Assembly: GCA_902792515.1 (NCBI GenBank)
Contig: CADAZX010000001.1
Location: 72,441 to 136,440 of the forward strand
Length of the DNA stretch: 64,000 nucleotides
Source: an uncultured Ruminococcus sp.
GTDB lineage: Bacteria; Bacillota; Clostridia; UBA1212
Direction of reading: 5' to 3'
The translations under genes were made by a program, and so were the position numbers. The notes beneath the pieces were generated by a model that was not told where the DNA came from, made no database searches, and saw only the letters and a list, made by a program, of their open reading frames with translations. Every line of letters begins with the position of its first letter. Position 1 is the first letter of the stretch. Below are positions 12,163 through 28,998 of the stretch, one piece after another.

Positions 12163-12207
12163 AAAAAAGTGCGGGCGGAGCCACCGGCTCCGCCCGCACT
12201 TTTTTAC
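12163..12207. terminator. Bidirectional rho-independent terminator between the convergent genes 10973..12145 and 12251..13390
   Basis: aaaaaaGTGCGGGCGGAGCC-accg-GCTCCGCCCGCACtttttt: a perfect 15-bp stem flanked by an A-run and a T-run. Confidence 0.8.
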
Positions 12208-12250
12208 TGTACGATTTTCCCTTTTTAAAGAAGCATTTTTAACCGATACT

Positions 12251-13390
12251 TTAAGGAAGCATCTTTCCGAATACTCTGTCGAGCACCGCGCCGATCTGGC
12301 CCGCATCCGGGTCGACCGGATTTGCCGTCGTGCAGATATCCTCAAGCGCCGCCTGAATGATTCTGCTTCTGTGCTCGGTGTAGTTCGGCAGGTTCACGCC
12401 GGCCTGGAGAAGCGACGACGGAATCTGAAGCTCGTTGATTAGCTTGTTGATCTCGCGGACAAGATACTGAACGGAGAGTCTCGTTCCCGCCGCGGGCAGC
12501 CCTATTATTCTCGCGATCTCCGCGTACCTTTTCGCCGTGGGCGACTTGTCAGCGCCGAACGGCACGTTTAGAGCCGAGTTGAACGCGATCACGTGGGGCA
12601 GCGTTATCGCGTTTGCCTCGCCGTGAGGAATGTGGAACGCCGCGCCGACTGCGTGTGAGATCGAGTGGCAGATGCCGAGCCCCGCCTTCGTGAACGCCAG
12701 TCCCGCCAGGTACGAAGCCATCATCATATTTTCGCGGGCTGCATCGTCGTCACCGTTTTTGAACGCCTCGGGCAGCCACTCGAACGCGAGCTTGAGCGCC
12801 TTTTCGGCATACGCATCTGTAATCGGGTTCGCGCCCTTCGCGACGTACGCCTCGAACGCGTGTGTAATGACGTCCATTCCCGTGAAAGCGGTGACCTTGG
12901 GCGGCACCGTCTTCGTGAGCTTGTAGTCGAGGATCGCGAGGTCCGGGATCATCCTGTCGTCTGCGAGCGGAATCTTCCTGCCCGCGTCCTCGTCCCTGAT
13001 TACCGTGTAGTTCGTAACCTCCGAGCCCGTTCCGCTTGTCGTCGGAATCGCCACGAATTCCGGGTGAACGTTCATGCCGTCCAGCACCAGAATGACCGCC
13101 TTGGCCGTGTCGATCGCGCTTCCGCCTCCGAGCGCCACAATTACCTCCGCTCCCTTGTCCGTAACGAACTTCAGGCAGTCGGTCACGAGCGTCAGCGTCG
13201 GATCCGGCATAACCTTGTCGTAAACGCTCACGTTGCACGTCCTTAGAAGGTTCACGATCCTGTCGCAGATCCCGTTTTCCTTCATGACCGCGTCGGTAAT
13301 AACGGTCACGTTTTTCTTGCAGTACCTGCCGAGCGCGTCAGTCGCGCCCGCTCCGAATATTAAGTTTGAGCTGATTTGAAATTCCGTCAT
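12251..13390 (-). CDS. Iron-containing (group III) alcohol dehydrogenase, likely lactaldehyde/propanol oxidoreductase (FucO/PduQ-like)
   Basis: GGGSAIDTAKAV, the metal-binding HxxxH region and the Fe-ADH fold. It sits next to the DeoR regulator at the edge of the microcompartment locus. Confidence 0.8.
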   Translation of the reverse strand: MTEFQISSNLIFGAGATDALGRYCKKNVTVITDAVMKENGICDRIVNLLRTCNVSVYDKVMPDPTLTLVTDCLKFVTDKGAEVIVALGGGSAIDTAKAVILVLDGMNVHPEFVAIPTTSGTGSEVTNYTVIRDEDAGRKIPLADDRMIPDLAILDYKLTKTVPPKVTAFTGMDVITHAFEAYVAKGANPITDAYAEKALKLAFEWLPEAFKNGDDDAARENMMMASYLAGLAFTKAGLGICHSISHAVGAAFHIPHGEANAITLPHVIAFNSALNVPFGADKSPTAKRYAEIARIIGLPAAGTRLSVQYLVREINKLINELQIPSSLLQAGVNLPNYTEHRSRIIQAALEDICTTANPVDPDAGQIGAVLDRVFGKMLP

Positions 13391-13453
13391 AAAAAGCTCC
13401 GAAACTCTCTAAAATGTCGTTTTGTCTCCGCCGCGGCCCCTGCGCTTTTCCGC

Positions 13454-14227
13454 TCAGGCCTCCTGCAGCGGGTAGAGAAGCCCGATCTGCCTCTCCGCAA
13501 AAAACTCCGTCCACTCGATGCCCGGGTTCCTGTCCGTGACAACTATGTCCACGTCCTCGACCTTGCAGATTTCCACCAGCGACACCCGGTTGAACTTCGT
13601 ACTGTCGATCGCGAGAATTTTCGTCCTCGCCGCCCCGATTATCGCCTTTTTGATCTCCGCGTCCTCGTCGTTCGAGTCCGTCAGACCGTTGCGCATGTCG
13701 ATTCCCTTGCACGAAAATATCGCGTAGTCAACGTGGAACGACTTTATCGCCTCGACCGCCCGCGCCCCGACGAACGCGTAGCCGCCCTCCTTGAGCATGC
13801 CCCCTGTCGCGAAAACCCTCCAAAACGGCTTGTCGCACAGCTCGCAAACGATCTCGGACGAATTCGTGATGACCGTCAGGTTCTTCCTGACCTTGAGCGC
13901 CTTGATCACGAAAAGCGCCGTCGAGCTGCCGTCGAGCATCACGTTCGAGCTCTCGGGAATGATATCCCCGGTCACGTTCGCTATCGCCTGCTTGAGTTCC
14001 ACGTTCGACAGCTTTCTGACCGAATACGGCAGGTCGACGTCCGAGCTCTCCGCCAAAACCGCGCCGCCGTAGATTTTCCTCGCGACGCCCTCGTTTTCAA
14101 GCTTGAGAAGGTCTCTCCTGACGGTCTCCTCCGTAACGTCAAAATGCGTCGCAAGGTCGCTGACTATTACCTTTTTCTCTTTCTGAAGCAAGTCCTTAAT
14201 GTACTGCTTCCTCTCGATTGCCAGCAT
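13454..14227 (-). CDS. DeoR/GlpR-family transcriptional regulator
   Basis: N-terminal HTH (RKQYIKDLLQKEKKVIVSDLATHFDVTEETVRRDL) plus a C-terminal DeoR sugar-binding domain. Confidence 0.9.
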   Translation of the reverse strand: MLAIERKQYIKDLLQKEKKVIVSDLATHFDVTEETVRRDLLKLENEGVARKIYGGAVLAESSDVDLPYSVRKLSNVELKQAIANVTGDIIPESSNVMLDGSSTALFVIKALKVRKNLTVITNSSEIVCELCDKPFWRVFATGGMLKEGGYAFVGARAVEAIKSFHVDYAIFSCKGIDMRNGLTDSNDEDAEIKKAIIGAARTKILAIDSTKFNRVSLVEICKVEDVDIVVTDRNPGIEWTEFFAERQIGLLYPLQEA

Positions 14228-14266
14228 CTCTGAAACGCGCCTGCTCTTTCTTCTGTAAAATCCGAT

Positions 14267-14391
14267 GTGTCTCCGCTTGGTCTCCGGTTTAGCTGCCGCA
14301 CTTACCTTAATTCAACGACGCCGCAGCTTTATGTTGGCGGCATGAACGATTCCGCGAAGCGGTCAAGTGAAGGACGCAACTTAAAGTGCGG
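14267..14391. repeat. Intergenic modular repeat, copy A (block X 14267-14295 plus hairpin block Y 14320-14391)
   Basis: Block X is near-identical to 25857-25887. Block Y is near-identical to 25941-26012 and to the reverse complement of 47030-47107. Y has a long imperfect stem enclosing ccgc-gaa-gcgg. Confidence 0.8.
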
Positions 14392-14619
14392 CTGATAATT
14401 TTAGTTGTGTCTACAGCCGGAAATCTGCTGTCCCGAAAATCTGCGCTCTGGAAACTGCAAAGTCCGGAGCTATTTTTGCGTGCGGTCGTCCGAAGCTGTA
14501 CGAAGGTACTGCGAGCGGCGACCTCGCGCAAAGCAGTTTGCCGGGCAATCGCCATAGGCCCCTTATTTTTATATTACAATTCGGCAAACTGCGTAAAGAG
14601 CCCGGAATCTGCAGTTTCC

Positions 14620-15180
14620 TTAGACTATGGTTTCCCAGAGCTTCTTGTCCGGGCGAGGAATGATCGCGCTGTCGAGGCACATGCCTTCCTCCGCGACCGT
14701 CGCTATCGCCTTTTCCACCGCCGCCGTAACCGCCGCCACGTCGCCGGTAAAGAGTACGTACGACTTTCCGGCCATACCGTTCGCGAGCCTCAGCTCAACG
14801 AGCCGGACCTCCGCGGTTTTCGCCGCCACATCAGCCGCGACGATTGCGCCGGCTACCGAAAAAGTCTCAACGATTCCGAGCGCCTCGACCTCTCCGAACT
14901 CCGCGGCACCGAACATTGCCGAGAAGATCGACTCGTGCGGGTTGCCGAGCACGAAGCTGTCCACGAGCATTTCCGGGAAATTCGTTTTCGCCGCTTCGAT
15001 CGCGGCCTTCACGCTTCCGAGCCTTCCCGAGACGAGAATCACGTACTTTCCGGGGCAAACCGGGTGCGCGTCAAGCACCTCGACCTCGGCCGCCTTGATA
15101 AGGATATCGGCCGCTTTGAGACCCGTTGAAATCGTTCTGTATTCGACTAAGCCAATTGCACTGCTCATACCGGTTTTCAC
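14620..15180 (-). CDS. pduT: Tandem-domain BMC-T shell protein, PduT-like
   Basis: Two Pfam00936-type BMC domains. EMLVDSFVLGNPH, GIVETFSVAG and IPRPD motifs, and a Cys in the first domain (HPVCPGKY), match PduT. Confidence 0.8.
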   Translation of the reverse strand: MKTGMSSAIGLVEYRTISTGLKAADILIKAAEVEVLDAHPVCPGKYVILVSGRLGSVKAAIEAAKTNFPEMLVDSFVLGNPHESIFSAMFGAAEFGEVEALGIVETFSVAGAIVAADVAAKTAEVRLVELRLANGMAGKSYVLFTGDVAAVTAAVEKAIATVAEEGMCLDSAIIPRPDKKLWETIV

Positions 15181-15224
15181 CTTTCGTGTATTGCAAACAA
15201 ATCAAACCTCCGCCTTGCCGCTGT

Positions 15225-16562
15225 TTACTGACGGCGCGCGGTAATAACTATCTCTTTATCAGTTACGCTCTCGACTGTTCCGTCGATCGGAGAGTGGAGC
15301 GCGACGCCGAGGCTGGTTGCGGGGGTTGCCGCGATCAGCTGGTTTTTCGTCACCTCATCGCCCGCTTTAACGGAAGGAACGCACGGTACGCCGATGTGCT
15401 GCGAGAGCTTCAGGCGCAGGCGCGTGTATTTCGTTCCTGTCTCGGTGAGGGGCGCGGGAATGTCGTACCTGGAAAGTCCGAGCCTCGCGGTAAGCCTCTC
15501 CTTAGAGAGCATTCTGTGCGGTCTCGTCGCGGAAACGGGCTTCAGCTCCGCCTGTCCGGCCATCGCCACGCCGTGCTTTCTGAGACCTGCCTTGTACTCG
15601 TTGATGAGCGTTTTCGGCGAGAGGCCCTGAGGGCAGGCGTACATCTCGCATACGCCGCAGCCGCAGCAGTAAAGCGTCCCGAGGAACGGTTTCACGTTGT
15701 CCGATCTGAGGCTGACGCCGGCGGTCATAAAGTCGGCCGGTGATATCGGCTCGCCGAGAAGGTGGCGCGGGCAGAGATCCGAACACATGTGGCAGTTGCA
15801 GCAGACGGCTTTCGCCCTTCTGAACTGGAGCTTGATGTTCGGTCTGTGGTGCGTTACCACGTAGGAGTTGTCCGGGAGCAGAATGATGCTGCTCGTCGTC
15901 TTCGTCACAACTCCGTCGGGTCCGGTGAGCGTGCCCATCATCGGTCCGCCGCAGAGGTAGACCGGATTTTCGATCGTCGCGCCGCCGGCTGCCTCAACGA
16001 GCTCCGCGAAAGTAACTCCGAGCGGAACCTTGAGCGTGACGGGGTTCCTGACCTCGCCGCAAACGGTCACGAACTTTTCGGTGACAGGCGTGTCCGCGTG
16101 GATCGCGTTATATATGTTGAGCATCGTCTCGACGTTGTAAACAACGCACCCCACCGCGATCGGAATGCTTCCGGGCGGCACGACTCTGCCTGTTGTCTCG
16201 TAAATCGTCACAACCTCGTCGCCTGCCGGGTAGATCTCGGGCAGAAGGCCGATCTTGATGTGGCGGAACGACGAAAGATTCGCCGTGATCGCCTCCACAG
16301 CGCGTCCGTACGACTGCTTGATTGCGATAATGACATTCGAAACTTCAAGCGCATCTGCGACGTCCTCGAGCGCGGTCATGATCTCGTAAGCGTACTTTTC
16401 CATGACCTGGCGGTGCAGCTTGAGAAGAGGCTCGCACTCGGCGCAGTTAAGAATAACCGTGTCGGCAGACTTGTTGAGTTTGGCGTGCGAAGGGAATCCC
16501 GCTCCGCCGCAGCCGACGATGCCGTTGTTCCGCAATATTTCGATAAGCCTTGACAGTTCCAT
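15225..16562 (-). CDS. pduS: RnfC/NuoF-like Fe-S flavoprotein, PduS-like (cobalamin reductase / electron-transfer protein of microcompartments)
   Basis: GCGGAGFP NADH-binding motif, two 4Fe-4S Cys clusters (CCNCHMCSDLCP; CCGCGVCEMYACP), ~445 aa. Confidence 0.75.
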   Translation of the reverse strand: MELSRLIEILRNNGIVGCGGAGFPSHAKLNKSADTVILNCAECEPLLKLHRQVMEKYAYEIMTALEDVADALEVSNVIIAIKQSYGRAVEAITANLSSFRHIKIGLLPEIYPAGDEVVTIYETTGRVVPPGSIPIAVGCVVYNVETMLNIYNAIHADTPVTEKFVTVCGEVRNPVTLKVPLGVTFAELVEAAGGATIENPVYLCGGPMMGTLTGPDGVVTKTTSSIILLPDNSYVVTHHRPNIKLQFRRAKAVCCNCHMCSDLCPRHLLGEPISPADFMTAGVSLRSDNVKPFLGTLYCCGCGVCEMYACPQGLSPKTLINEYKAGLRKHGVAMAGQAELKPVSATRPHRMLSKERLTARLGLSRYDIPAPLTETGTKYTRLRLKLSQHIGVPCVPSVKAGDEVTKNQLIAATPATSLGVALHSPIDGTVESVTDKEIVITARRQ

Positions 16563-16881
16563 AAATCAATGTCTCTTTCCACCGTGATGCAAAGGCCGTC
16601 CCGCCCTTCCGGTTTTTCACCTTCAAATAGGCGAAAATCGCACGCGCAGCCTCTGCGGTAAAAGTTATTCGTTCGCGCCGCCTCCGCCTTAAGTCTTACC
16701 GTATTTCCGGGAAATATCCCGCGAAGGCAAAACCGCATCGCTCCACTAAGTGGCAGAGCTTTCCGCGGCGCGTTGTTATCCTGTTCAGCCCGTGCGGAAA
16801 GCCTTCCGCAACAGGATCAAAGGTTCCGTTTGCGGCCGCCCCGCTTGTTTTTAAAAGGCGGGGCGGCCTTCAGCGGACCTT

Positions 16882-17145
16882 TTACTCGAGTCCTATGCTG
16901 TCGTCGACGATACCCACAATCGCGGCGTCGATGGGACAGTTGACAAGACCGCAGCCGATTCTGGCCGCGCTTCCTTCGGCGACAAGCACGATTTCGCCTA
17001 TGCCGGCGCCGACGTTGTCGATGGCAACAATTCGCTTTTTGTCGGCCATGCTCTCCATGGGCTCGATGATCATGAACTTATTGCCTATAAGATTTTCGTT
17101 TTTTCTCGTGGCAACGACGCTGCCAACCACTCTTCCTACCAGCAT
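16882..17145 (-). CDS. pduN: BMC vertex (pentamer) protein, EutN/PduN/CcmL family
   Basis: 87 aa. MLVGRVVGSVVAT...KFMIIEP is typical of Pfam03319. Confidence 0.9.
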   Translation of the reverse strand: MLVGRVVGSVVATRKNENLIGNKFMIIEPMESMADKKRIVAIDNVGAGIGEIVLVAEGSAARIGCGLVNCPIDAAIVGIVDDSIGLE

Positions 17146-17197
17146 AAAACCACCCGCTTTATCTGCTTTGCTTGATTAATCTTATTAACCCTTTTCT

Positions 17198-17833
17198 TTA
17201 CTTGACGATCATACCGATGTCGCCGGTCTTGATCTGCGAAGCGTTCGCCTCGTCGGTGTCGATGTGCATCTCGAGCGAGAACGAAGGGTCGACGCGAATC
17301 GCGACGTTGTTGAAAATCGTTCCTCTGTCGTTGTTGAACTTCACAGAAACGACGTCTCCGTCCTTGACTCCCGCCATTTCAGCGTCGTGAGGCGTCATAT
17401 GAATGTGACGCGCCGCGACGATGCAGCCCTCGTCGAGTTGCACCATTCCGCAAGGTCCGACAAGGTTGATCGGAGCGCTTCCGGCAATGTGACCCGAAAG
17501 TCTGACCGGCGCCGGAACGCCGAGCGTGCGGGCATCCGTAAGCGATACTTCAACCTGGGTCTTGCTTCTGCAAGGTCCGAGGATCCTCACGTTCGCTATC
17601 GGGCGAAGTTTGAGGCCGACGATCATAACCTGCTCGTTGCAGGCGTACTGTCCGCCCATGAGGTCCTTCTTCTTGGTCAGATGGTAGCCCTTGCCGAAGA
17701 GTTTCTCAACGTCTTCCTGCGTCAGATGGATGTGTCTCGCGGACACGCCCACGGGCACCTGAAACCCGGTTTCGGACTGCTTTTGGATCACCTCAAGCAC
17801 AGCTCTTGTGATTTCTTCTATCGACTGATTCAT
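17198..17833 (-). CDS. pduL: Phosphate propanoyltransferase PduL
   Basis: Duplicated PduL/EutD-type domains (ARHIHLT...; AARHIHMTPHDA), ~211 aa. Confidence 0.9.
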   Translation of the reverse strand: MNQSIEEITRAVLEVIQKQSETGFQVPVGVSARHIHLTQEDVEKLFGKGYHLTKKKDLMGGQYACNEQVMIVGLKLRPIANVRILGPCRSKTQVEVSLTDARTLGVPAPVRLSGHIAGSAPINLVGPCGMVQLDEGCIVAARHIHMTPHDAEMAGVKDGDVVSVKFNNDRGTIFNNVAIRVDPSFSLEMHIDTDEANASQIKTGDIGMIVK

Positions 17834-18074
17834 TTTCTTCCGCCTTTATTTCTTCCGTTCTTTCCGCCCGGGCGCCTTTCCTTCCTTTAAGAAGGCGGTA
17901 CGCTTTTTTGCAAGCGCTCCGGCGCCCGCGGCATAAAAACTCAACGTTTCCCGGGCAATACTTCAAAGCGCGATACGTCGATTTGATACGTCAATTCGAT
18001 AAGTCAACGCAATGCGTCAACGCGATACCGCAATGATATCCCGCACCGTCCGGGAATTATAAATACGGGGATAA

Positions 18075-18353
18075 TTACTTCAGTACGGGAAGAATTCTCT
18101 CGACGTCGTTGTGAGGTCTGGGGATCACGTGGGTGGCTACGAGTTCGCCGAGCTTGGCAGCGTTTGCGCCGCCGGCTTCAACAGCGGATTTAACGGCGCC
18201 GACGTCGCCTCTTACCATAACGGTAACGAGTCCGGAACCGATCTTCTCGGTGCCGACAAGTTCAACGTTAGCAGCTTTGAGCATTGCATCGGCCGCTTCG
18301 ATCGCAGCTGTAAGTCCTCTTGTTTCAACCATTCCTAAAGCCTGTTGTACCAT
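18075..18353 (-). CDS. BMC-H shell protein (PduA/PduJ-like). The start was probably miscalled in the ORF track, which gives an upstream Lys-rich extension to 18494.
   Basis: [30 protein letters not shown]...IPRPH. A strong RBS AAGGAGG lies immediately upstream of the internal ATG at 18351-18353. Confidence 0.85.
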
Positions 18354-18498
18354 TTTCTTTTCCTCCTTAATTGTTTCAACATTTCCGCTTCCCGCGGATT
18401 CAGTTTTGATTTCTTTTACATTCGGAGCCGCCGGCTTCTTTACGTCAGCCTTCGGCTTTCCGGTGTTTGCCGGTGTTTTCTTAGTTTCTGCCATAATG

Positions 18499-18819
18499 TC
18501 ACACCTTCTTGAGTCTGCTGGCGCTTATAGCAACCATTCTGGCGGTCTCCTCGTGGGGGTTCGCGATCACGGCGTGCGCGCAGGGTTTGACAAGGCTTCG
18601 CGCCAGCGCGGCTTCCACAGCTTCGGTAACGGCCGAGACCGTTCCCTCTATTACGATTGTGACAAGCCAGCCGCCGAGTCTGCGTTCCCACGTGACGAAC
18701 CTGACGTCTGCGGTTTTGCACATTATGTCAAGCGCGTCGATCGCGGCCGTAACGCCTCTGACCTCGATAAATCCCAATGACTCCATTTTCTGCCGTTCCT
18801 CCCTGAGAAACTTTTTCAA
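18499..18819 (-). CDS. BMC-domain shell protein (106 aa)
   Basis: [30 protein letters not shown]...[20 protein letters not shown] is a single BMC domain. Confidence 0.8.
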
Positions 18820-18950
18820 GTTTTCGAGCTTCCGCCCTTTTCAAAATCCGACCGTAACGTAACGCGACGGTTCCGTCCTCTGACGTCTCGTGAGGCGCCG
18901 TTTTAACGTTCTTTACGTCAAGAACACTAAATCAGCGTTTTCCGATTATT

Positions 18951-19229
18951 TTATTTCGCCTGGGGAAGGATCTTCTCCACGTCGTTGTGCGGTCTCGGAA
19001 TAACATGAACCGCTATGAGCTCGCCGAGTTTGCCTGCGTTTGCGGCGCCGACTTCGGTAGCCGCCTTAACAGCCGCGACGTCGCCTCTTACCATAACGGT
19101 AACGAGTCCGGAGCCGATCTTCTCGGTGCCGATGAGGGTGACCTCTGCCGCTTTAACCATTGCGTCGGCCGCTTCGATAGCCGCTGTAAGACCTCTGGTC
19201 TCAACCATGCCCAATGCTTCCTGTACCAT
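18951..19229 (-). CDS. BMC-H shell protein (PduA/PduJ-like), paralogue of 18075..18353
   Basis: [30 protein letters not shown]...IPRPH. RBS GGAGG lies before the ATG at 19227-19229. The track ORF extends upstream, probably spuriously. Confidence 0.85.
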
Positions 19230-19377
19230 AACATTTACCTCCATTAGAATTTCAAGTTGTTTCACTCTGCCGGGTCTTGCGCTCCGTCTGCGTTCCGCGT
19301 CGCTTTTCGCACCGGAAACGTCATTTTCGCGCATGCCCGAAAATAATTACATTGCCGTTCCGCCGCCCGCCTCAAGG

Positions 19378-19692
19378 TCAGCTCTTGTCGAGTCCACTCA
19401 GCTTCAGCATCTTTTCGGTTCCGGGTTCCGGGTTCGCTATTATATAAGACGTAACCACTCCCGAGACCTTTTCGGCCGCCTCTACTGCCGCCTCGACCGC
19501 AGCCTGAACCGCGGCGACGTCCCCCCGGAATTTCACCAAAACGATAAGAGGCACCTTCAGCTTTTCCGGGTGAGCCGGTTTGTTTCTGTCGAAAACCTCC
19601 ATATGTACGTTGGCCGCCTTGCATCCGGCGTCTCCCGCAACGAACGCCGCGACCAGTCCGTATACTTCCACAAATCCAACTGCTTCTGCCAT
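19378..19692 (-). CDS. BMC-domain shell protein (104 aa)
   Basis: AVGFVEVYGLVAAFVAGDAGCKAANV...FRGDVAAVQAAVEAA, then IIANPEP. Confidence 0.75.
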   Translation of the reverse strand: MAEAVGFVEVYGLVAAFVAGDAGCKAANVHMEVFDRNKPAHPEKLKVPLIVLVKFRGDVAAVQAAVEAAVEAAEKVSGVVTSYIIANPEPGTEKMLKLSGLDKS

Positions 19693-19927
19693 TTTCGTAA
19701 AATTCTCCGGGTTTTAATCTTTTCCTCCCCGCGGCAGTCCGCCGTTTTTAGGAAGGACGTTATTTTCTGCAGCGGGCATTCTCGAAAATCCTCAAACCGG
19801 GAATCCGGGAACGCTCTGCCGCTCATTCAAAGTCAGCCGGTCTTTTTAAGGGAATGCGCTCTTACGCTTGACATCAAATATTCGCCGCTTGCGTAAAGAG
19901 CATTAAATCTCTGCATTTCCGTGCCGG

Positions 19928-21148: not shown

Positions 21149-21162
21149 TTGTTTTTCCTCCC

Positions 21163-22548
21163 TTATCTGATGCAGAGACTGTCTGACATGATGCAGTGTC
21201 TGCGCTTTGTGAATGTCTGAGCGGAAGTGAGTCCCTCACCTGTGCGGCTCGCGATCGTAAACGTGCAGTAGCCTTCGCCGCCGAATCCGAGCGCCGCGTA
21301 GGAAGGCGCGTTCTTGACCAGGATCGCGGTGTCTATCGCCTTGCCGTACTTGGTGATGTTGTCGATGTTCTTCGAGTGGATGTGGGCCGAATGGCGGTTG
21401 CCGTGCTCGAGCCACACCGCTTTCTCGATCGCGTCGTCAATGTCCTTCGCCCTTACGATACCGAGGATCGGCATCATGAGCTCGGTGGCGATGAGCGGGT
21501 GTTCCTTCTCGCCCTCGAAAATGATGCAGCGCACGTTCGACGGAACGTCGACGCCTATCATCTTCATAAGGGTCTTCGCGTCTCTTCCGACGCACTTGCG
21601 GTTGAGCGCGCCCTTCGGCGTGATAACGGTCTCGACGAGCTTCTGAATCTCTTCGGGAGTTGCCTCGTAGCAGCCGTTTTCAAGCAGATGGTACTTGAGC
21701 TCGTCCGCGATCGACTCGACGGCGACAATTTCCTTCTCCGCGATGCACGGGAGGTTGTTGTCGAACGTGCAGCCGTTCACGATGTCTCTCGCCGCCTTCG
21801 GGATGTCGGCCGTGTCGTCAACGAGTGCCGGCGGGTTGCCCGCGCCTGCGCCGATGCCCCTGCGTCCCGACGAGAGAACCGTGGTTACAACGCCCGGTCC
21901 GCCTGTCGCGGCGATGAGCTGGATGGCCTTGTGGGACATCATGATCTTGGACGTATCCAAAGTGGGTTTGACAACGGAAGTCGCGACGTTGTTCGGGCCG
22001 CCCGCCTCGATCGAAGCTCTGTTCACGAGCTCGATCGCGAACTGGGAGGTTTTGATTGCCGCCGGGTGCGGGTTGAAAACGACTGTGTTGCCGCCCGCGA
22101 TCATTCCGATGCTGTTGCAGAGGATCGTCTCGCTGGGGTTGGTCGTGGGCGTGATGGCGCCGATAACGCCGAACGGGCCCATTTCGACAAGGGTAAGTCC
22201 CCTGTCGCCCGACCAAACGCGCGTGGTGATGTCCTCGGTTCCGGGCGTCTTTTCGGCGAGAAGCTTGTGCTTCAAAATCTTGTCGCCTACGTTGCCCATT
22301 CCCGTCTCCTCAACGCCCATTCTCGCGAGGAGTTCCGCATTTTCAATAGTAAGTCTTCTGATGTTGGAGATAATTTTCTCCCTGAAATCCATAGGCATTT
22401 TCTGCATGACCTTTTGGGCCTCGATTGCAGCCGCTATGGCATCGTTCATGTCCTCAAAAATACCGAGTCTTTTTTCTGCCGGCGTATCGTGGAGCTGCAT
22501 GCTTGCCACAACCTGCGCTACGATTGCCTGAATATCGTTCTCGTTCAT
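21163..22548 (-). CDS. pduP: CoA-acylating aldehyde dehydrogenase (PduP/EutE family) with an N-terminal encapsulation peptide
   Basis: ALDH fold with catalytic Cys context (NNLPCIAEKE). N-terminus MNENDIQAIVAQVVASMQ resembles known encapsulation peptides. It overlaps the next gene by 4 nt, which suggests operon coupling. Confidence 0.85.
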   Translation of the reverse strand: MNENDIQAIVAQVVASMQLHDTPAEKRLGIFEDMNDAIAAAIEAQKVMQKMPMDFREKIISNIRRLTIENAELLARMGVEETGMGNVGDKILKHKLLAEKTPGTEDITTRVWSGDRGLTLVEMGPFGVIGAITPTTNPSETILCNSIGMIAGGNTVVFNPHPAAIKTSQFAIELVNRASIEAGGPNNVATSVVKPTLDTSKIMMSHKAIQLIAATGGPGVVTTVLSSGRRGIGAGAGNPPALVDDTADIPKAARDIVNGCTFDNNLPCIAEKEIVAVESIADELKYHLLENGCYEATPEEIQKLVETVITPKGALNRKCVGRDAKTLMKMIGVDVPSNVRCIIFEGEKEHPLIATELMMPILGIVRAKDIDDAIEKAVWLEHGNRHSAHIHSKNIDNITKYGKAIDTAILVKNAPSYAALGFGGEGYCTFTIASRTGEGLTSAQTFTKRRHCIMSDSLCIR

Positions 22549-23084
22549 TTTTTCGCGATCGCCTCCTTAAATAATTTTAGTCCGTATTCTGCCAAAAAAG
22601 TGTCCTGTTCCTCCGTGCCGCCGCTGACGCCTATGCCGCCGATCACCGTTCCGCCGCACTCAAACGGTTCCCCGCCTCCGAAAATCACTATTCTCTGATT
22701 GTTCGTAAACTGGATCCCGTAGAGCGGCTTCCCGGGCTGGGCGAGCTTTTTGAGCGTCGAGGTGGACATCTTGAGCGCCGCCACCGTGAAAGCCTTGTCA
22801 AAAGCGATGCCGTAGCTCGCTATGTAAGAGCCGTCCATACAGTGGACCGCCACCGGATTCGCGCCCCTGTTCGAGATCGCCACGACCGCGTTGACTCCGA
22901 TTTCGGCCGCCTTCTTCTCCACGCCTTCGATGATCTCGAGCGCGAGCGCGAGCGTCATATCGGAGTAGGAGTTTCCCGGCGTTTCCGGAGCAGGTTTTAC
23001 CGTCTGCGGCCGGCCGCCCTCAAGGGATGCGACTACGTCACGCACTATCTGTTCGATTGCCGCGTCCGAAAGTTTCCGGTCCAT
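22545..23084 (-). CDS. GlcG / DUF336 (PduO C-terminal domain-like, haem-binding) protein with an encapsulation-peptide-like N-terminus
   Basis: AAIEQIVRDVVASLEGG N-terminal helix. The C-terminal region ...VIGGIGVSGGTEEQD is typical of DUF336. Confidence 0.65.
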   Translation of the reverse strand: MDRKLSDAAIEQIVRDVVASLEGGRPQTVKPAPETPGNSYSDMTLALALEIIEGVEKKAAEIGVNAVVAISNRGANPVAVHCMDGSYIASYGIAFDKAFTVAALKMSTSTLKKLAQPGKPLYGIQFTNNQRIVIFGGGEPFECGGTVIGGIGVSGGTEEQDTFLAEYGLKLFKEAIAKK

Positions 23085-23209
23085 AACACTTTCCGTTTCT
23101 TTTTGTTTCTTTTTTCCGGGTCTCCCGTACGCCGGCTTTTCGAAAAAGCCGCTTCGGGAATATCCCGGTCTGTTTTTAATAAATTCTCATTTAGATTTTA
23201 AGGCGTCGC

Positions 23210-24022
23210 TTATTTGCCGAGCTGCGCCATAACCTTCTTTGTGATTTCGGCGATCAGAGCGTCGTCGGAGCTGCTCGAAGAGGAGGTGTGATGACCCGAG
23301 CATGAACCGCCGCAGTTGTGGCAGCTGGGCTTGCCTTCAAGCGTGTTCGGGCAGAGGTTCGCGGGATGGCGTCCGGGCATACCGAACTTTCTCCTGATCT
23401 CGTAGAGGTCCTCAACCTGCTGGGGAGTGAACTCCTTCGGGCCGCCGAGCATTTTCGACTGGTAGAGGAGCCGGGCGTAGAACTCGGTGGATTCCATCTT
23501 GTAGTACGCGTTGAGGAGCGTGTTCGAATACGTGAGAGCGCCGTGGTTCTCAAGCAGAACGGCGTCGAAATACTGAACGTACTCGGAAACCGCGTCCGGA
23601 ATCTCCTCGGTGGAAGGACGTCCGTACTTCGCGATCGGAACGCAGCCGAGAGCGATGACCGCCTCAGGCATAATGGGCTGAGTCAGCGGAATTCCCGCGA
23701 TCGCGAACGAGGTCGCGTACAGCGGGTGTGCGTGTACGACCGCGTTGACGTCCGGTCTCTCTTTATAGACGCGCATGTGCATTTTGATTTCGGAGGACGG
23801 TTTGAATCCGGCGTTCGCCTGGATGACCTTTCCTTCTCTGTCAACTTTGCAGATGAAGTCGGGCGTCATAAAGCCCTTACTCACACCTGTAGGTGTGCAA
23901 AGGAACTCGTTGTCGTTCAGCTTTACGGAGATGTTGCCGTCGTTGGCGGCGACCATTCCCCTGTCGTAAATACGACGGCCGATGTCGCAGATTTCCTTTT
24001 TGATCTCATACTCTGATTTCAT
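23210..24022 (-). CDS. Class II aldolase (L-fuculose-/rhamnulose-1-phosphate aldolase family) with a Cys/His-rich C-terminal linker and a terminal encapsulation-peptide-like helix
   Basis: The aldolase_II core carries metal-ligand His residues (HAHPLYAT). The C-terminal ~70 aa is an extra: ...CPNTLEGKPSCHNCGGSCSGHHTSSSSSSDDALIAEITKKVMAQLGK. Confidence 0.75.
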   Translation of the reverse strand: MKSEYEIKKEICDIGRRIYDRGMVAANDGNISVKLNDNEFLCTPTGVSKGFMTPDFICKVDREGKVIQANAGFKPSSEIKMHMRVYKERPDVNAVVHAHPLYATSFAIAGIPLTQPIMPEAVIALGCVPIAKYGRPSTEEIPDAVSEYVQYFDAVLLENHGALTYSNTLLNAYYKMESTEFYARLLYQSKMLGGPKEFTPQQVEDLYEIRRKFGMPGRHPANLCPNTLEGKPSCHNCGGSCSGHHTSSSSSSDDALIAEITKKVMAQLGK

Positions 24023-24119
24023 TGAAAAAGCCTCCTGTAAAAAAGTATGTTTATCTGTGGTATTTTTTGCCGGCCCCGCGGCCGTTTGTTTTCGTATTTC
24101 CCGGAAATAATATTGAATA

Positions 24120-24554
24120 TTATTCGCGGCTCAGGTACTCCCTGATTTTTTCCACTCCCTGGCCGGCCACCGAGTCGACGAGGAAGATCTTTTGCGGTTC
24201 GACCCCCATTATGTCCATCCAGTTCATCACCATCGGCACGTTCGCGTCAGGATCGTTTATCTTGGTGATGATCCCTATCACGTCCCTGTTGCAGAACGCG
24301 GTGCTGCCCGGGTCGAAAAGGCAGTACGTCTCGTTCGCGGCTATCAGGAATCCGACCACGTCGGCTTCGTAGGTGTAGAGCCCTATGGCCCTCGCGAACT
24401 CTCTGCTCTGTATGTACTCGCCCGGGGTGTCGATGACGTCGTCGTCGTAGTTGACGTACTGCGTCTTGTGGTAGTGTATCTCCTCGCCCCTGAGCGCCTG
24501 CGTTAAAGTCGTCTTGCCGGCCTCGCTGCGGCCGATCAGAATGATTTTTCTCAT
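24120..24554 (-). CDS. EutP/PduV-family small GTPase
   Basis: P-loop GRSEAGKTTL, ~144 aa, in the microcompartment operon. Confidence 0.85.
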   Translation of the reverse strand: MRKIILIGRSEAGKTTLTQALRGEEIHYHKTQYVNYDDDVIDTPGEYIQSREFARAIGLYTYEADVVGFLIAANETYCLFDPGSTAFCNRDVIGIITKINDPDANVPMVMNWMDIMGVEPQKIFLVDSVAGQGVEKIREYLSRE

Positions 24555-24576
24555 GACGGCCGTCCGCCTTTCCGCG

Positions 24577-24960
24577 TCACGTCTTGGTGATTGCGACCAC
24601 GGTGAACTTGAGCGTTTCCCTCAAGTAGTCCACGACCGCGTGCACCGCCGCCTCGACCTCTGAAACCGTGCCTGTCATTATGAGCGTTCCGCTGAACCTG
24701 TCCACGAATCCGATCTCCGCGCCGGAGGCCTTCATCGCTATGTCGCCCGCGATTATCGACGTCTCCGCCGGCGTCATCGTCATGATTCCGATCGAACTGT
24801 TTGAGTAGTCGACCGACGGGTTGAGTCCCATCTTCCTGTACAGGATCGGCTCAGGGTTCGCGATAATGTGCGCCAGCGTCACCTGCTTGCCGGGAACGAG
24901 CTCCTGCACGATCCTCATTTTCGTGTCGTCGGACTGTTTGATTAATCCCTGAAGATCCAT
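24577..24960 (-). CDS. pduU: Circularly permuted BMC shell protein, PduU/EutS-type
   Basis: GFVDRFSGTLIMTGTVSEVEAAV and an N-terminal beta-barrel-forming segment, ~127 aa. Confidence 0.8.
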   Translation of the reverse strand: MDLQGLIKQSDDTKMRIVQELVPGKQVTLAHIIANPEPILYRKMGLNPSVDYSNSSIGIMTMTPAETSIIAGDIAMKASGAEIGFVDRFSGTLIMTGTVSEVEAAVHAVVDYLRETLKFTVVAITKT

Positions 24961-24961
24961 T

Positions 24962-25753
24962 TTATCCTCCGATCTGGCATCTCAGGCCGCTCTTTTTCGC
25001 GACCTCCAGAAGCGATTCCATGTACGACTGCGACATCGGCTCGATTCCGTCCAGAAGGTATTCCCTGCCGAGTCCCGTGTACTTGTCCTGCCCGAGCCTG
25101 TGGTACGGAAGCAGGTGGAGCTGCTCAACGCCGGGAAGCGAGGCCGCGAACGTCGCGATCTGCCTTATCTCCTCGGGCGTGTTGTTGAACGTCGGGATGA
25201 CCGGCACCCTTATAATAAGCTCGACGTCGCTCTCCGCGACCTTGCGCGCGTTTTCGAGAATGCGCGTGTTCGGCTTCCCGGTGAACTCCTCGTGCTTTCT
25301 CGGGTCCATGTGCTTGATGTCCATCAAATAAGTGTCGAGGTAAGGGAGAAGCTTTTGGATGTTTTCGAACGGCAGCGTCGCGGCCGACTCGATCGCGGTG
25401 TTGATTCCGTTCTCCTTGGCAGCCCTCAGAAGCGCCGCCGCGAAGTCCGGCTGGCAGAGGCACTCGCCTCCGGAAAGCGTCAGACCTCCGTTCGAGTTCC
25501 GGTAGTAGTCGCCGTCCTTCATGACCTCTTCCATGACTTCAGCCACGGTGACGTCCCTGCCGATTATTTTTTTCTTGCCGGCTACGGTCATCTCCTGGAT
25601 CTTGTACTCCTGGGACTCCGGGTTGCAGCACCATCTGCATCTCAAGACGCAGCCCTTCAAAAAGACTATCGTCCTGATGCCGGTGCCGTCGTGGATCGAA
25701 TATCTCTGGATGTCGAAAATCCTTCCGGTCTGCTGCATGTAGTTGTCGTTCAT
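24962..25753 (-). CDS. Glycyl-radical-enzyme activating enzyme (radical SAM, PflA family)
   Basis: CxxxCxxC radical-SAM motif (CVLRCRWCCNP), glycine-rich SAM motif (LTLSGGECL), ~263 aa. It lies 289 nt downstream of the glycyl radical enzyme. Confidence 0.9.
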   Translation of the reverse strand: MNDNYMQQTGRIFDIQRYSIHDGTGIRTIVFLKGCVLRCRWCCNPESQEYKIQEMTVAGKKKIIGRDVTVAEVMEEVMKDGDYYRNSNGGLTLSGGECLCQPDFAAALLRAAKENGINTAIESAATLPFENIQKLLPYLDTYLMDIKHMDPRKHEEFTGKPNTRILENARKVAESDVELIIRVPVIPTFNNTPEEIRQIATFAASLPGVEQLHLLPYHRLGQDKYTGLGREYLLDGIEPMSQSYMESLLEVAKKSGLRCQIGG

Positions 25754-25829
25754 TGTCGGTTGATTTTTCCTTGAGTTTCAGTGTTTTCCGCTGCTTTGGA
25801 AGCAGTTGTTCGTTGAAATCGCCAGGTTT

Positions 25830-26027
25830 CGAGCTATTTTCGCGTGCGCGGACCCGCGTGTGTCTCCGCTTGGTCTCCGGTTTAGCTGGCGCTAAAAGTC
25901 GCCCTCGCGCGAGACGCACGCGATTCTACCTTATAAACGTCGACGCAGCTTGATATTGCGACATGAACGATTCCGCGTTAGCGGTCAAGTGAGGGACGCA
26001 ACATAAAGTGCGGACTGCGTAAAGAGC
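25830..26027. repeat. Intergenic modular repeat, copy B (blocks Z, X, Y, W), lying between the glycyl radical enzyme and its activase
   Basis: Z 25830-25851, X 25857-25887, Y 25941-26012, W (ctgcgtaaagagc) 26015-26027. The blocks match copies at 14267-14600. Confidence 0.8.
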
Positions 26028-26042
26028 CGAAAGCCGGCGATT

Positions 26043-28571
26043 TTAGAAATTGTTAGCCTGAGTCGTCCTCGAAATAATGTCGTCCTGGAGGGATCTGGAA
26101 AGCGTCGTGAACAGCGCGCTGTATCCCGCGACCCTTACCACGAGCGCTTTGTACTTCTCGGGGTGCTGCTGAGCGTCGAGCAGCGTCTCGCGGCTGACCA
26201 CGTTGAACTGCACGTGCATGCCCTTTCTGTTGAAGTACGTTCTCAGGTAGGTGATGAAGTCGTTGATGCCCTTCGGGCCCGAGAGCGCCGACGGGTGGAA
26301 CTTCTGGTTGTAGAGAGTTCCGTTGGAGGCGATCAGGTGGTCGATCTTCGCGACCGAGTTTGCCGCCGCCGTGGGTCCGAGCTTGTCCCTGCCCTGTGCG
26401 GGGCCGATGCCGTCCGCGATAGGAGCCTGCGAAAGTCTGCCGTCGGGAGTCGCGCACGACTGGGCGCCGAGCGGAACGTTCGCGGAGACCGGATAGAGGC
26501 CCGCCTGGAAGATGCCGCCGCGAGGATTCCTGAACGTCTCAAGCGGCTTTGTGTATGTGTACGCGACGTCTCTCGCGAAAAGGTCGATCTCGTCGATGTC
26601 GTTGCCGTACTTGGGAAGCGCCTCGATGTCGTCGAGCATCTTTTCGTAGAAATCGACACGCTCTTTGGGGAGCTGCTTGGATGCCGCCGCGCTCGCGTAT
26701 ACCGCCTTGATGACTTCGGGGGTGATCTCCCTGCCGTCCTTGGCGAGCTTAGCGCAGACCGTCTTCACGATGTGCTCCATATCGAGCGGCGTGAGCCCTT
26801 TTCCGAAGTTGTCCGCCATAGCCTGCTTGAAATCGGCCATCGTGTACTTTTTCTCCTCGAAAACGAGCTTTTTGATCGCGAACAGGCCGTCCGCGACGTT
26901 GGCGATACCGAAGCCTTGAGGGCCGGTGAAGTTGTAGATCGCTCCGCCCTCTTCCACGCACTTGCCGGATTCGAAGCACCCGTCTGTGAGGCAGGACTCG
27001 AACGGAAGCGGGCTTCTCTGAGCGTGGGCGTAATCTATCGCGTTGATTGCGTTTACCATCAGCGCGATGGAGGTTGTCATCTGCTTCTTGTAGGCGTTGT
27101 AGAGCTCGTCGAACGTAGTCATCTTGAGCACGTCGCCCGTCTCGACAGTTACAAGCTCGCCGTCCTCCCAGCCGTTCGTGAACGTGAGCTCGAGAGGTCT
27201 GAGCATGTTGAAGAACGCCGCGTCGTGCCAGCCGTCGGTCTTGCCCGGAACCTGGGGCTCCACGCAGCCGATAATGTTGTACTCGCGCGCCTCTTCAAGC
27301 GGAATTCCGCGGTTCATGAGGGCGGGAATGATGACCTCGTCGTTGTAGTAAGCCGGGAGGCCGATACCGGTTCTGGTGAGCTCGACCGCCTTCACAAGGA
27401 TCTCGTGGGGCGTTCCGTTCCAGATCCTGATGGAAAGAGAAGGCATCGGCAGTCCGGTGTGCATGGAAGCTTCGATGCACATCGCGGAAAGGTCGTTCGT
27501 GACGTCCTTGCCGTCCCTGTCCTGGCCGCTTACGATCAGGTTCTGGAAGAGGCTGTAGCCGGCGAATCCCTCCGCGGAAGCGGCGTCGCGGCACTTGTTG
27601 AGGTCGTTCAGCTTGATCCAGATGCAGTCGAGAAGCTCCTGCGCGGACTCTCTCGTGATCGTACCTGCGTCGAGGTCCTTTTTATAATAAGGATACATAT
27701 ACTGGTCGAATCTTCCGGGCGAGATCGAGTGGCCGCTCGACTCAAGCTGGAGGAGCTGCTGCACGAACCAGAAAGCCTGGCACGCCTCGTGGAACGACTT
27801 GGCCGGATTCTCGGGAACGTTGCGGCACACCTGCGCGATCTTAAGCAGGTCGGTGCGCCTCTCGCCGCTCGCGGACTGAGCCATTTTCTCAGCCAGATCA
27901 GCGTATCTGTTGGCATATCTGATGACCGCCTTGCAGCTTCTGATGACCGCCTCATAGAAGATCCTGCGCTTGCACGCGTCTGCCTTGCCTACGCACATCT
28001 CCGCCATTTCCTTTTCGGCTCTCGCGATGACGCCCTTGAGGCCCTCGCCGAGAACGGTCCAGTATGTGACCGTGATGTGGCCGATGCCGTTGTAGAAATA
28101 GTTGCCCGGCGTGAAAATGTTGTGGTTAATCGCCCTGAGAGCTCTCGGGTCCATAAACGCCGTCGCGAGCTCGCTTGTAGTCTTGTTCTTCCAGTACTTG
28201 TCCGCCTCCGCGATCCTGCGCTTGGCGTCTTCGCTGATATTGAACGGGTCCGCCTTTCTGTCGGCGACGGTGTCGAACTCCGCCTCGAGCCACTCGTACG
28301 AGAACTCCGGATAAGTCTGGCAGCCTCTCATTTTAATCGTGGTGCTGCCGACGATGAGTTCGTCGTCGCGGATGACGATCGGAATGTTGTCCAGAATGTG
28401 CTCGAACGCCCTCGATTTCCTCTCCACCTCGGGAAGGTTCTCGGTAGCTTTGTACGACTCTGTAATAAGTTCAGCCCTCGCCGGCTCAATCTCCGGTTTA
28501 GCATTATAAAAGGCGTCAAGGAGTCTGTCGATTCTGGCGGTCTTTTTGATTGGGCTCGTATCGAAATTCAT
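26043..28571 (-). CDS. Glycyl radical enzyme, probable B12-independent 1,2-propanediol dehydratase (PFL2/glycerol-dehydratase class)
   Basis: 842 aa. Glycine-radical motif RVAGYSALF near the C-terminus. Eliminase-type active-site loop GCVEP. N-terminal region (ELITESYKATE...AFEHIL...IRDDELIVGSTT) and the internal WFVQQLLQLESSGHSISPGRFDQYMYPYY block match remembered diol-dehydratase sequences. Confidence 0.7.
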   Translation of the reverse strand: MNFDTSPIKKTARIDRLLDAFYNAKPEIEPARAELITESYKATENLPEVERKSRAFEHILDNIPIVIRDDELIVGSTTIKMRGCQTYPEFSYEWLEAEFDTVADRKADPFNISEDAKRRIAEADKYWKNKTTSELATAFMDPRALRAINHNIFTPGNYFYNGIGHITVTYWTVLGEGLKGVIARAEKEMAEMCVGKADACKRRIFYEAVIRSCKAVIRYANRYADLAEKMAQSASGERRTDLLKIAQVCRNVPENPAKSFHEACQAFWFVQQLLQLESSGHSISPGRFDQYMYPYYKKDLDAGTITRESAQELLDCIWIKLNDLNKCRDAASAEGFAGYSLFQNLIVSGQDRDGKDVTNDLSAMCIEASMHTGLPMPSLSIRIWNGTPHEILVKAVELTRTGIGLPAYYNDEVIIPALMNRGIPLEEAREYNIIGCVEPQVPGKTDGWHDAAFFNMLRPLELTFTNGWEDGELVTVETGDVLKMTTFDELYNAYKKQMTTSIALMVNAINAIDYAHAQRSPLPFESCLTDGCFESGKCVEEGGAIYNFTGPQGFGIANVADGLFAIKKLVFEEKKYTMADFKQAMADNFGKGLTPLDMEHIVKTVCAKLAKDGREITPEVIKAVYASAAASKQLPKERVDFYEKMLDDIEALPKYGNDIDEIDLFARDVAYTYTKPLETFRNPRGGIFQAGLYPVSANVPLGAQSCATPDGRLSQAPIADGIGPAQGRDKLGPTAAANSVAKIDHLIASNGTLYNQKFHPSALSGPKGINDFITYLRTYFNRKGMHVQFNVVSRETLLDAQQHPEKYKALVVRVAGYSALFTTLSRSLQDDIISRTTQANNF

Positions 28572-28796
28572 GTCATTCCTCCGTACTTTTCCTTCAAGGG
28601 CGCGTTTTCCGCCCCCTGTCTCAGCTATATATCGTTTTAAAAACGCTTTTCATCTTTAGAAAGCTCTAATTTAACGGCAAACTGCGATAACAAGTATATT
28701 GTAACCCGTTTGCCGCTTGCGCAAAGAGCATTTAATCGGCGTTTCCTTCGGAAAATACCGCAAGGCATAGTAAGGCCTATTACGGAAACTACATAT

Positions 28797-28825
28797 AGTA
28801 TACCACCCGTTTCCCGCACCGTCAA
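28797..28825 (-). promoter_or_regulatory. Sigma70 promoter of the microcompartment operon (TTGACG-N17-TATACT) with an upstream A-tract UP-like region
   Basis: Minus-strand read: gcggTTGACGgtgcgggaaacgggtggTATACTatatg, about 215 nt upstream of the glycyl-radical-enzyme ATG. An A-rich (aacaacaaaaaa)n region lies at 28835-28900. Confidence 0.6.
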
Positions 28826-28998
28826 CCGCTTTTTGAACTTTTTTGTTGTTTTTGAGAAATAATTATAGAATTTTTTGTTGTTTTTTGTTGTTTTCACACA
28901 TTGTTATGACTGATTCCACAACAGCATCCCACATCGCAGTCAAATAATGACGTATTTCAACCGAAACAAGAATCAATTTGCGGGCACTACAGATTGTA

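Follow-up and report, generated by a model that had tools for sequence, protein, structure and literature searches.

Glycyl radical enzyme microcompartments (GRMs) of the GRM5 type, in which Clostridia of gut and rumen convert fucose and rhamnose to propionate and propanol within a protein shell, have been known since 2006-2015. In Clostridium phytofermentans, fucose and rhamnose induce the corresponding operon 15-87 fold, with polyhedral bodies being formed (PMC3557285, PMC6325248); its DeoR gene (Cphy_1187) is transcribed separately, and the sugar isomerase and kinase are encoded at other chromosomal sites (PMC3557285). Only for this organism and for Roseburia inulinivorans have induction by either sugar, polyhedral bodies and the formation of propionate and propanol been shown (PMC3557285, PMC6325248). 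Here, we describe a locus of this kind in a stretch of 64,000 nucleotides from an uncultured Ruminococcus sp. (contig CADAZX010000001.1, positions 72,441 to 136,440; assembly GCA_902792515.1). This whole stretch is referred to as the window, and all positions are given within it. We consider it very probable that the region is a functional GRM5-type glycyl-radical microcompartment locus of an uncultured bacterium of the Clostridia from gut or rumen. The locus itself is an ordinary, intact copy of the described GRM5 cluster, i.e., a known and widespread type in a new uncultured host.

Six-frame listing of open reading frames (ORFs) combined with Pfam scans showed a run of 18 intact, co-directional minus-strand genes with full-length Pfam matches, extending from 28571 down to 12251. 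An initial annotation of this DNA had counted about 19 such genes; the run itself and the domains it listed are present and intact, and only the count needed correction. The same annotation had assigned the region to GRM5, an assignment that held throughout, as we found every sequence-testable feature described for this type (Ferlez et al. PMC6325248; Axen et al. PMC4207490). A glycyl radical enzyme (GRE; PF02901 and PF01228) and a radical-SAM activase (PF04055) are encoded beside bacterial microcompartment (BMC) shell genes, following the published definition (PMC6325248). The GRE falls in the 1,2-propanediol dehydratase group and has an internal insertion, the aldolase combines its catalytic residues with a C-terminal encapsulation peptide, and the activase is insert-less. 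The cluster further encodes a Zn-dependent alcohol dehydrogenase (ADH) with PF00107 and PF08240, an acylating aldehyde dehydrogenase, PduL, PduS and PduT, a set of BMC-H, BMC-T and BMC-P shell proteins, and an adjoining DeoR regulator, while GrpU is absent. The PduU-like protein contains no Cys and is therefore not GrpU. Both DUF336, as an ancillary gene, and a DeoR gene adjoining the locus have been listed for GRM5 (PMC4207490). Two of the enzymes have characterised enzymes of the two reference GRM5 loci as their best solved matches (5i2a and 4c3s), and the assignment is supported.

Comparison with other genomes indicates how common this arrangement is. We scanned one genome per species with the Zn-ADH, which has relatives in at least 584 species-representative genomes, and used the best 80 of these matches (77-92% identity) as the related loci throughout. 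These loci mostly come from uncultured Clostridia, Acutalibacteraceae, Oscillospiraceae and Lachnospiraceae of gut and rumen. The closest among the matches listed are metagenome-assembled genomes named 'uncultured Clostridia bacterium' and 'Mageeibacillus sp. UBA1243', and rumen 'Ruminococcus sp.' RUG bins. Thirty-nine of the loci span the cluster from GRE to DeoR, and 13 of them, from different species, have exactly the order of the window (GRE, activase, PduU, PduV, aldolase, DUF336, PduP, Zn-ADH, four BMC genes, PduL, PduN, PduS, PduT, DeoR). Another 14 differ by a single block move that places PduP and PduL behind DeoR, and the other 12 show further rearrangements or lack at least one accessory gene.

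Four of the related loci have no GRE within the fetched flanks. L056 and L072 follow the order aldolase, PduP, Zn-ADH, shell genes, PduL, PduN, PduS, PduT, whereas the hits start with DUF336-PduP in L071 and with the Zn-ADH in L037. Compared with the window, the Zn-ADH of these loci is 77-78% identical, their PduP and aldolase, where present, only 51-56%. This difference would fit a Zn-ADH that acts on lactaldehyde in both locus types, with and without a GRE.

We assigned the class of the GRE from pairwise bit scores, sequence identity and mapped residues. Its best solved match is the diol dehydratase of R. inulinivorans (PDB 5i2a; 1280 bits, residues 2-841), with a global identity of 66% over 839 residues, compared with 912 bits for the B12-independent glycerol dehydratase and 477-595 bits for the CutC choline trimethylamine (TMA)-lyases. 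His165, Cys436, Glu438 and Gly816 correspond to His166, Cys438, Glu440 and Gly817 of the characterised diol dehydratase, in which the roles of Cys438 and Glu440 have been described (PMC13450708). All GREs without a microcompartment insertion align to the protein in two pieces, skipping approximately residues 590-650, while 5i2a aligns straight through. In GRM3, GRM4 and GRM5 enzymes, an internal insertion of this kind, here about 60 residues long, has been read as an intramolecular encapsulation peptide (PMC5311937, PMC6325248). There is no N-terminal extension, as the alignment to 5i2a begins at residue 2. Among NCBIfam models, the CutC model gave 566 bits (cut-off 1050), and the next-best matches were the general PFL2/glycerol dehydratase subfamily and HpfG (675 bits, cut-off 1000). 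Membership in GRM1 or GRM2, the choline TMA-lyase types, was considered and rejected, the enzyme being neither CutC-like nor extended at its N-terminus. The initial annotation, which had likewise proposed a diol-dehydratase-like GRE, had named three observations that would count against it: clustering with CutC, pseudogenised shell genes and an aldolase without its catalytic metal ligands. We found a preference for the diol dehydratase over CutC (1280 versus 477-595 bits), shell genes that are all intact, and an aldolase in which Glu78, His97, His99 and His160 are kept.

The activase lacks the ferredoxin-like insert of about 70 residues: it has no PF00037 match, only seven Cys and no CX2CX2CX3C motif, and it aligns to the PFL activase model in one stretch, whereas models of insert-bearing activases align in two, skipping the insert. 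An insert-less activase has been stated to be GRM5-specific (PMC6325248). The best solved match of the PduP-type enzyme is Cphy1178 of C. phytofermentans (4c3s/5dbv/5dru; 777 bits), which prefers propionaldehyde and forms propionyl-CoA (PMC4762007).

Ahead of their catalytic domains, PduP, Zn-ADH, DUF336 and PduL each carry an N-terminal amphipathic segment of the type (D/E)xxIxxIVxxVxxxL, and a similar one is found at the aldolase C-terminus. Encapsulation peptides have been described previously at the N-termini of PduP and PduL and at the C-termini of BMC aldolases (PMC4594438). An encapsulation peptide had been proposed for the Zn-ADH, and the helix-like segment RDIQEIVRKVLEAM is indeed found in its N-terminal extension. 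The hydrophobic moment reached the 99-100th percentile for Zn-ADH, PduL, the GRE insertion and DUF336 (the last at the 99th) and only moderate values for PduP (87th) and the aldolase tail (80th), and we do not rely on this test.

Two alcohol dehydrogenases are encoded, and published assignments of their reactions differ. Lactaldehyde reduction has been attributed to the Zn-ADH type with PF00107 and PF08240 (PMC6325248), whereas Petit et al. instead regarded the Zn-ADH as a propanol dehydrogenase and PduS as a propanediol oxidoreductase (PMC3557285). The Zn-ADH of the window is accordingly proposed as lactaldehyde reductase and/or propanol dehydrogenase (PMC6325248, PMC3557285). The Fe-type ADH at the end of the cluster had been called FucO-like, a name that we do not retain: it scores 280 bits against the ADH domain of AdhE and just 189 bits against FucO, reaches 270 against a cut-off of 523 with the NCBIfam lactaldehyde reductase model TIGR02638, and comes after DeoR in no more than 14 of 52 related loci. 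FucO identity was thus rejected, the score being below the equivalog cut-off and FucO not the nearest enzyme. Its catalytic domain starts at residue 9, so the protein has no obvious encapsulation peptide.

The aldolase aligns with solved fuculose-phosphate aldolases, and the same catalytic motifs are visible in the PDB alignments. It keeps a catalytic Glu78 and three zinc-binding His (His97, His99 and His160), which we take to correspond to Glu73, His92, His94 and His155 of Escherichia coli FucA. Its gene is embedded among shell and enzyme genes in 73 of the 80 related loci. The proposed encapsulation-peptide tail was recovered as a conserved terminal helix (residues 252-267) in an AlphaFold prediction based on 54 homologues (mean pLDDT 67.6; helix 73-84), while residues 215-252, which include the Cys/His region, had pLDDT <50, so the model is silent on metal binding. 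Compared alone with PDB sequences, the tail gave chance-level matches only.

Ahead of this helix, the linker carries the motif His219-Pro-Ala-x2-Cys224-x9-Cys234-His235-x-Cys237-x3-Cys241 (window positions 23297-23368). In the 54-sequence alignment, His219, Pro220, Ala221, Cys224, Gly230, Cys234, His235 and Cys237 are invariant, and Asn226, Ser233, Gly239 and Cys241 nearly so; at least three Cys are present in all 73 aldolase tails of the related loci, and at least four in 68 of them. The linker is thus not unconserved, although it has been described as lacking conservation in a study that nevertheless listed 5.5% Cys (PMC4594438). Our literature search found no mention of the Cys/His motif within the searchable library. 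The motif looks like a metal-binding site and could be a putative Zn knuckle or Fe-S cluster. Judging from its position and conservation, it could be needed for packing the aldolase or tie the enzyme to the PduS/PduT redox system.

Based on this gene content, a pathway can be proposed (Table 1), of which sugar activation, lactaldehyde reduction and the action of the regulator are modelled on the homologous systems of C. phytofermentans and R. inulinivorans. L-Fucose or L-rhamnose would be isomerised and phosphorylated in the cytosol by enzymes encoded outside the window. The class II aldolase, targeted to the compartment by its C-terminal amphipathic helix, would then cleave fuculose- or rhamnulose-1-phosphate to dihydroxyacetone phosphate and L-lactaldehyde, which the encapsulated Zn-ADH would reduce to 1,2-propanediol with NADH. 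The GRE diol dehydratase, activated by the radical-SAM enzyme, would convert 1,2-propanediol to propionaldehyde, and PduP would oxidise the latter to propionyl-CoA, regenerating inside the shell the NADH spent on lactaldehyde. PduL would form propionyl-phosphate and recycle CoA, while part of the propionaldehyde might be reduced to propanol by the Zn-ADH, or by the Fe-ADH in the cytosol. The shell itself would combine the pentamer PduN and the BMC-T protein PduT with a permuted hexamer resembling PduU and the four BMC-H proteins. Electrons for the activase or for GRE activation probably come from PduS and PduT, a hypothesis put forward previously (PMC6325248), and PduV probably has a role in positioning. 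DeoR would regulate transcription from the conserved promoter (28825-28797) according to the presence of the sugar or its phosphate.

Several observations weigh against this interpretation. The Pfam scan of ORFs in the 64-kb window revealed no gene for an isomerase, kinase or transporter of fucose or rhamnose, and since the isomerase and kinase genes are missing there, we can only infer the sugar substrate. No propionate or acetate kinase gene occurs in the locus. The Zn-ADH is without a characterised close homologue, its best PDB match reaching 122 bits. The aldolase falls below every NCBIfam equivalog cut-off, its best match being the 3-oxo-tetronate-4-phosphate decarboxylase model (143 versus a cut-off of 250). 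Finally, the sequence establishes the gene content, the catalytic residues and a close kinship to characterised enzymes; substrates, encapsulation, regulation and expression, like shell formation and activity, are predictions from it. The low aldolase scores would be compatible with an enzyme that feeds the compartment from another phosphorylated ketose, such as a different 6-deoxy- or 5-deoxy-ketose-1-phosphate, as would the unusual glycan-active proteins encoded in the flanks (weakly GH106-like, WbsX/GH99-like, GH39 and GH43). Yet only a 6-deoxy-ketose-1-phosphate yields lactaldehyde, the precursor for the diol dehydratase; moreover, loci of the same order occur in Lachnospiraceae and related Clostridia, and the reference GRM5 loci respond to fucose and rhamnose (PMC3557285). 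We give such a ketose a small chance.

The lack of deoxy-sugar isomerase and kinase genes in the window would also suit a compartment that uses only external 1,2-propanediol, as in GRM3, with an aldolase that stays in the cytosol or serves another pathway and merely shares the operon. The active-site architecture is common to GRM3 and GRM5 dehydratases (PMC5311937) and so would permit this explanation, whose chance we nevertheless regard as slim: the aldolase has a conserved C-terminal amphipathic helix after a linker, like encapsulated aldolases (PMC4594438), its gene stands among the shell and enzyme genes in most related loci (73/80), and the activase lacks the ferredoxin insert, the state given as GRM5-specific (PMC6325248). 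Using external propanediol would, in any case, be consistent with GRM5 and does not have to compete with it. Sequence separates GRE eliminases poorly (PMC13450708), the glycerol dehydratase scores as high as 912 bits, and PFL2/glycerol dehydratase and HpfG are the next-best models, which leaves barely any chance of another substrate (glycerol or dihydroxypropanesulfonate) and a different aldehyde in the compartment, given the 66% full-length identity to a proven diol dehydratase, an insertion that glycerol dehydratase lacks, the absence of sulfonate-handling genes and a PduP of the propionaldehyde-preferring type. A GRM5 compartment that processes fucose or rhamnose by way of 1,2-propanediol is therefore the interpretation that we retain.

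The shell genes raise a second question of general interest. A perfect AAGGAGG, read as 'KEEKK' in the longer frame, precedes the internal ATG of the fourth BMC-H gene in nearly all loci, which makes two isoforms of this protein possible. In 35 of 62 related loci, an ATG opens an extension frame of 30 or more codons (approximately 33-111 residues), and 25 of the 62 show a MAE(E)KK-type start to this frame; in loci with PduP-PduL behind DeoR, the extension is mostly missing. This gene may therefore encode a long and a short form, as known for PduB/PduB', of which the long one might bear an outward-facing tail rich in Lys, Ala and Pro. We regard the joint reading, i.e., a functional motif in the aldolase linker and, separately, two isoforms from the fourth BMC-H gene, as possible but rather doubtful. 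Only the aldolase motif and the shell-protein extension might be new, and both concern GRM5 generally rather than this window. In PduT, Cys38 lies at the position that ligates the Fe-S cluster.

Table 1 Features of the GRM5-type locus and their positions in the window.
Feature	Position	Strand	Characteristics
Predicted sigma-70-type promoter TTGACG-N17-(TG)TATACT	28797-28825	-	Score 10/12 matches; TG extension; putative function
Long 5' leader, ~219 nt if transcription starts right after the -10	28572-28790	-	First ~30 nt kept in relatives, remainder not
GRE, 1,2-propanediol dehydratase type, 842 aa	26043-28571	-	PFL-like and Gly_radical; Cys436-Val-Glu438, His165, radical Gly816; two-helix insertion ~590-650
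Repeat copy, GRE-activase gap	25859-26013	-	Genome-specific; stretches gap to 289 nt (relatives 8-140 nt)
GRE-activating radical SAM enzyme, 263 aa	24962-25753	-	CX3CX2C at Cys35, Cys39, Cys42; PF04055
Permuted BMC protein, PduU/EutS type	24577-24960	-	EutS model 115 bits; 0 Cys
PduV/EutP-family small GTPase	24120-24554	-	PF10662, 153 bits
Class II aldolase, fuculose/rhamnulose-1-phosphate aldolase type, 270 aa	23210-24022	-	PF00596; Cys/His motif 219-241; C-terminal encapsulation helix ~252-267
HbpS-like/DUF336 protein, 179 aa	22545-23084	-	Domain 43-169; ~42-residue N-terminal extension with amphipathic encapsulation-peptide-like segment AIEQIVRDVVASL
CoA-acylating propionaldehyde dehydrogenase (PduP type), 461 aa	21163-22548	-	Aldedh; NF011927 650 bits; N-terminal encapsulation peptide DIQAIVAQVVASM
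Zn-dependent medium-chain ADH, 406 aa	19928-21148	-	PF00107 and PF08240; ~50-residue N-terminal extension with encapsulation-peptide-like helix RDIQEIVRKVLEAM
BMC-H 1, 104 aa	19378-19692	-	Single BMC domain
BMC-H 2, PduA-like	18951-19229	-	Likely start at internal ATG after GGAGG; longer ORF to 19334 not conserved in relatives
BMC-H 3	18499-18786	-	Likely start at ATG after GGGAGG
BMC-H 4, PduA-like core from 18353	18075-18494	-	47-residue Lys/Ala/Pro-rich N-terminal extension (18354-18494)
PduL phosphotransacylase (PTAC)	17198-17833	-	Pfam; N-terminal encapsulation-peptide-like segment SIEEITRAVLEVIQ
BMC-P pentamer (vertex), PduN/EutN type	16882-17145	-	Pfam
PduS-type flavoprotein/Fe-S oxidoreductase	15225-16562	-	Pfam; two Cys clusters, Cys254-264 and Cys299-310
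PduT tandem-BMC protein (BMC-T)	14620-15168	-	Pfam; Cys38 in HPVCPGK
Second repeat copy, PduT-DeoR gap	14266-14391	-	Stretches gap to 392 nt
DeoR-family regulator	13454-14227	-	HTH_DeoR and DeoRC
Fe-type ADH, 379 aa	12251-13390	-	Accessory gene, in a minority of related loci; no terminal extension
Perfect 23-bp hairpin between A and T runs, cluster end	12160-12208		Bidirectional terminator, common to convergent DegT-type aminotransferase gene

The TTGACG-N17-TATACT promoter motif reported earlier was recovered at 28825-28797 of the minus strand, with A-rich CAACAAAAAA repeats in front of it. These repeats, the -35, the extended -10 and about 30 nt past the -10 are conserved across L001-L004, the four loci nearest to the window among the related ones. 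A Rfam scan of the whole window gave no family at the gathering score, and no known riboswitch or leader was found in the 219-nt 5' untranslated region. That this single promoter serves all 18 genes is a prediction from sequence. We found no terminator-like site on the coding strand in the intergenic gaps of the cluster. DeoR and Fe-ADH may form a separate transcription unit, by analogy with the DeoR gene of C. phytofermentans (PMC3557285). Upstream, the gene preceding the promoter ends in a terminator-like hairpin (29026-29007). An ORF at 29106-29894 was rejected as a member of the locus, having neither a family match nor a counterpart in relatives, and the HAD hydrolase gene at 29950-30729 is found upstream in only 4 of the 80 related loci, in three of these at just 23-26% identity.

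Several genes follow each other closely (the start of PduP overlaps the DUF336 stop by 4 nt, and a single nucleotide lies between activase and PduU), and long gaps separate GRE from activase (289 nt), PduN from PduS (319 nt) and PduT from DeoR (392 nt). A GC-rich imperfect hairpin without a T-run (16819-16883; 31-nt arms, 74% complementary) directly follows PduN and could be an mRNA processing or stability element. The PduN-PduS gap is likewise long in locus L004. The GRE-activase and PduT-DeoR gaps are unusually long because of the intra-operon repeats already seen in the initial annotation, of which one copy lies in each gap. The repeat measures about 125-155 nt with blocks 94-97% identical, and part of a third copy stands at 47031-47064, beyond the locus. 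It was found in none of the 80 related loci. The possibility of a conserved regulatory element was rejected on account of this absence, of the copy outside the locus and of a fold that is not unusual (z = -1.8); the repeat is a genome-specific dispersed element.

Elsewhere in the window, a second, short GRE and its own insert-less activase are encoded on the minus strand at 60051-62960, not beside shell genes. This GRE, a protein of 711 aa encoded at 60.8-63.0 kb, has a short N-terminus, a Cys366-Ile-Glu368 loop and an RVSGF glycine motif; it scores below every NCBIfam cut-off, and its best PDB matches reach about 300 bits (CutC and glycerol dehydratase). Genes for GH43, Zn-ADH, VanW and GFO/IDH/MocA oxidoreductase proteins lie downstream. 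Genes for an AAA_14/DUF4143 ATPase and a Schlafen AlbA_2/HATPase_c_4/HTH protein lie on a low-GC island at 50136-53219 (GC 0.39-0.42 versus about 0.57 elsewhere), which was probably acquired horizontally. The flanks (1-12145 and 54150-59951) encode glycan-active proteins rather than fucose or rhamnose catabolic enzymes: a weak match to GH106 alpha-L-rhamnosidases in an ORF running off the window start, and WbsX/GH99-like, ceramidase-like, DegT aminotransferase, GH39 and GH43 proteins. Three large flank ORFs (1074, 560 and 346 aa) have no Pfam match.

Our results show that this uncultured high-GC lineage of Clostridia can probably form propionate and propanol by fermenting fucose and rhamnose of host or plant origin independently of vitamin B12, a capacity that bears on the supply of short-chain fatty acids in gut and rumen. 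They also raise questions about GRM5 in general, namely which ADH reduces lactaldehyde, what role the Cys/His motif of the aldolase tail plays, and whether one shell protein exists in two forms.

Among known systems, the fucose-induced GRM5 locus of R. inulinivorans A2-194 (5i2a/5i2g) resembles the window in its GRE, the two enzymes being 66% identical over their full length and agreeing in catalytic residues and internal insertion. The published table for this strain (PMC3557285) leaves accession numbers unlisted between the PduU, aldolase and PduP homologues, which would fit extra genes at the PduV and DUF336 positions. Unlike this member of the Lachnospiraceae, the window comes from a high-GC uncultured member of the Clostridia, has gaps lengthened by repeats and carries an Fe-ADH gene after DeoR. 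C. phytofermentans (Cphy_1174-1187) shares the order GRE, activase, PduU, aldolase, PduP, Zn-ADH, BMC, PduL, PduN, PduS, PduT, DeoR (PMC3557285); its table lists no PduV or DUF336 gene and three BMC-H genes, whereas the window has four. Expression, products and polyhedral bodies have been shown in C. phytofermentans, while the window locus is known from its genes.

More distant systems share parts of this organisation. GRM3 of Rhodopseudomonas palustris BisB18 likewise combines a glycyl radical diol dehydratase bearing an internal encapsulation insertion with a PduP and PduL core, but differs from the window in having no aldolase and no Zn-ADH lactaldehyde reductase, an activase with a ferredoxin-like insert and, in many loci, GrpU (PMC6325248). 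The PVM-like aldolase microcompartments resemble the window in a class II aldolase with a C-terminal encapsulation peptide, in DeoR and in their synteny with GRM5 (PMC4207490). These loci are without a GRE and activase, both of which are encoded in the window.

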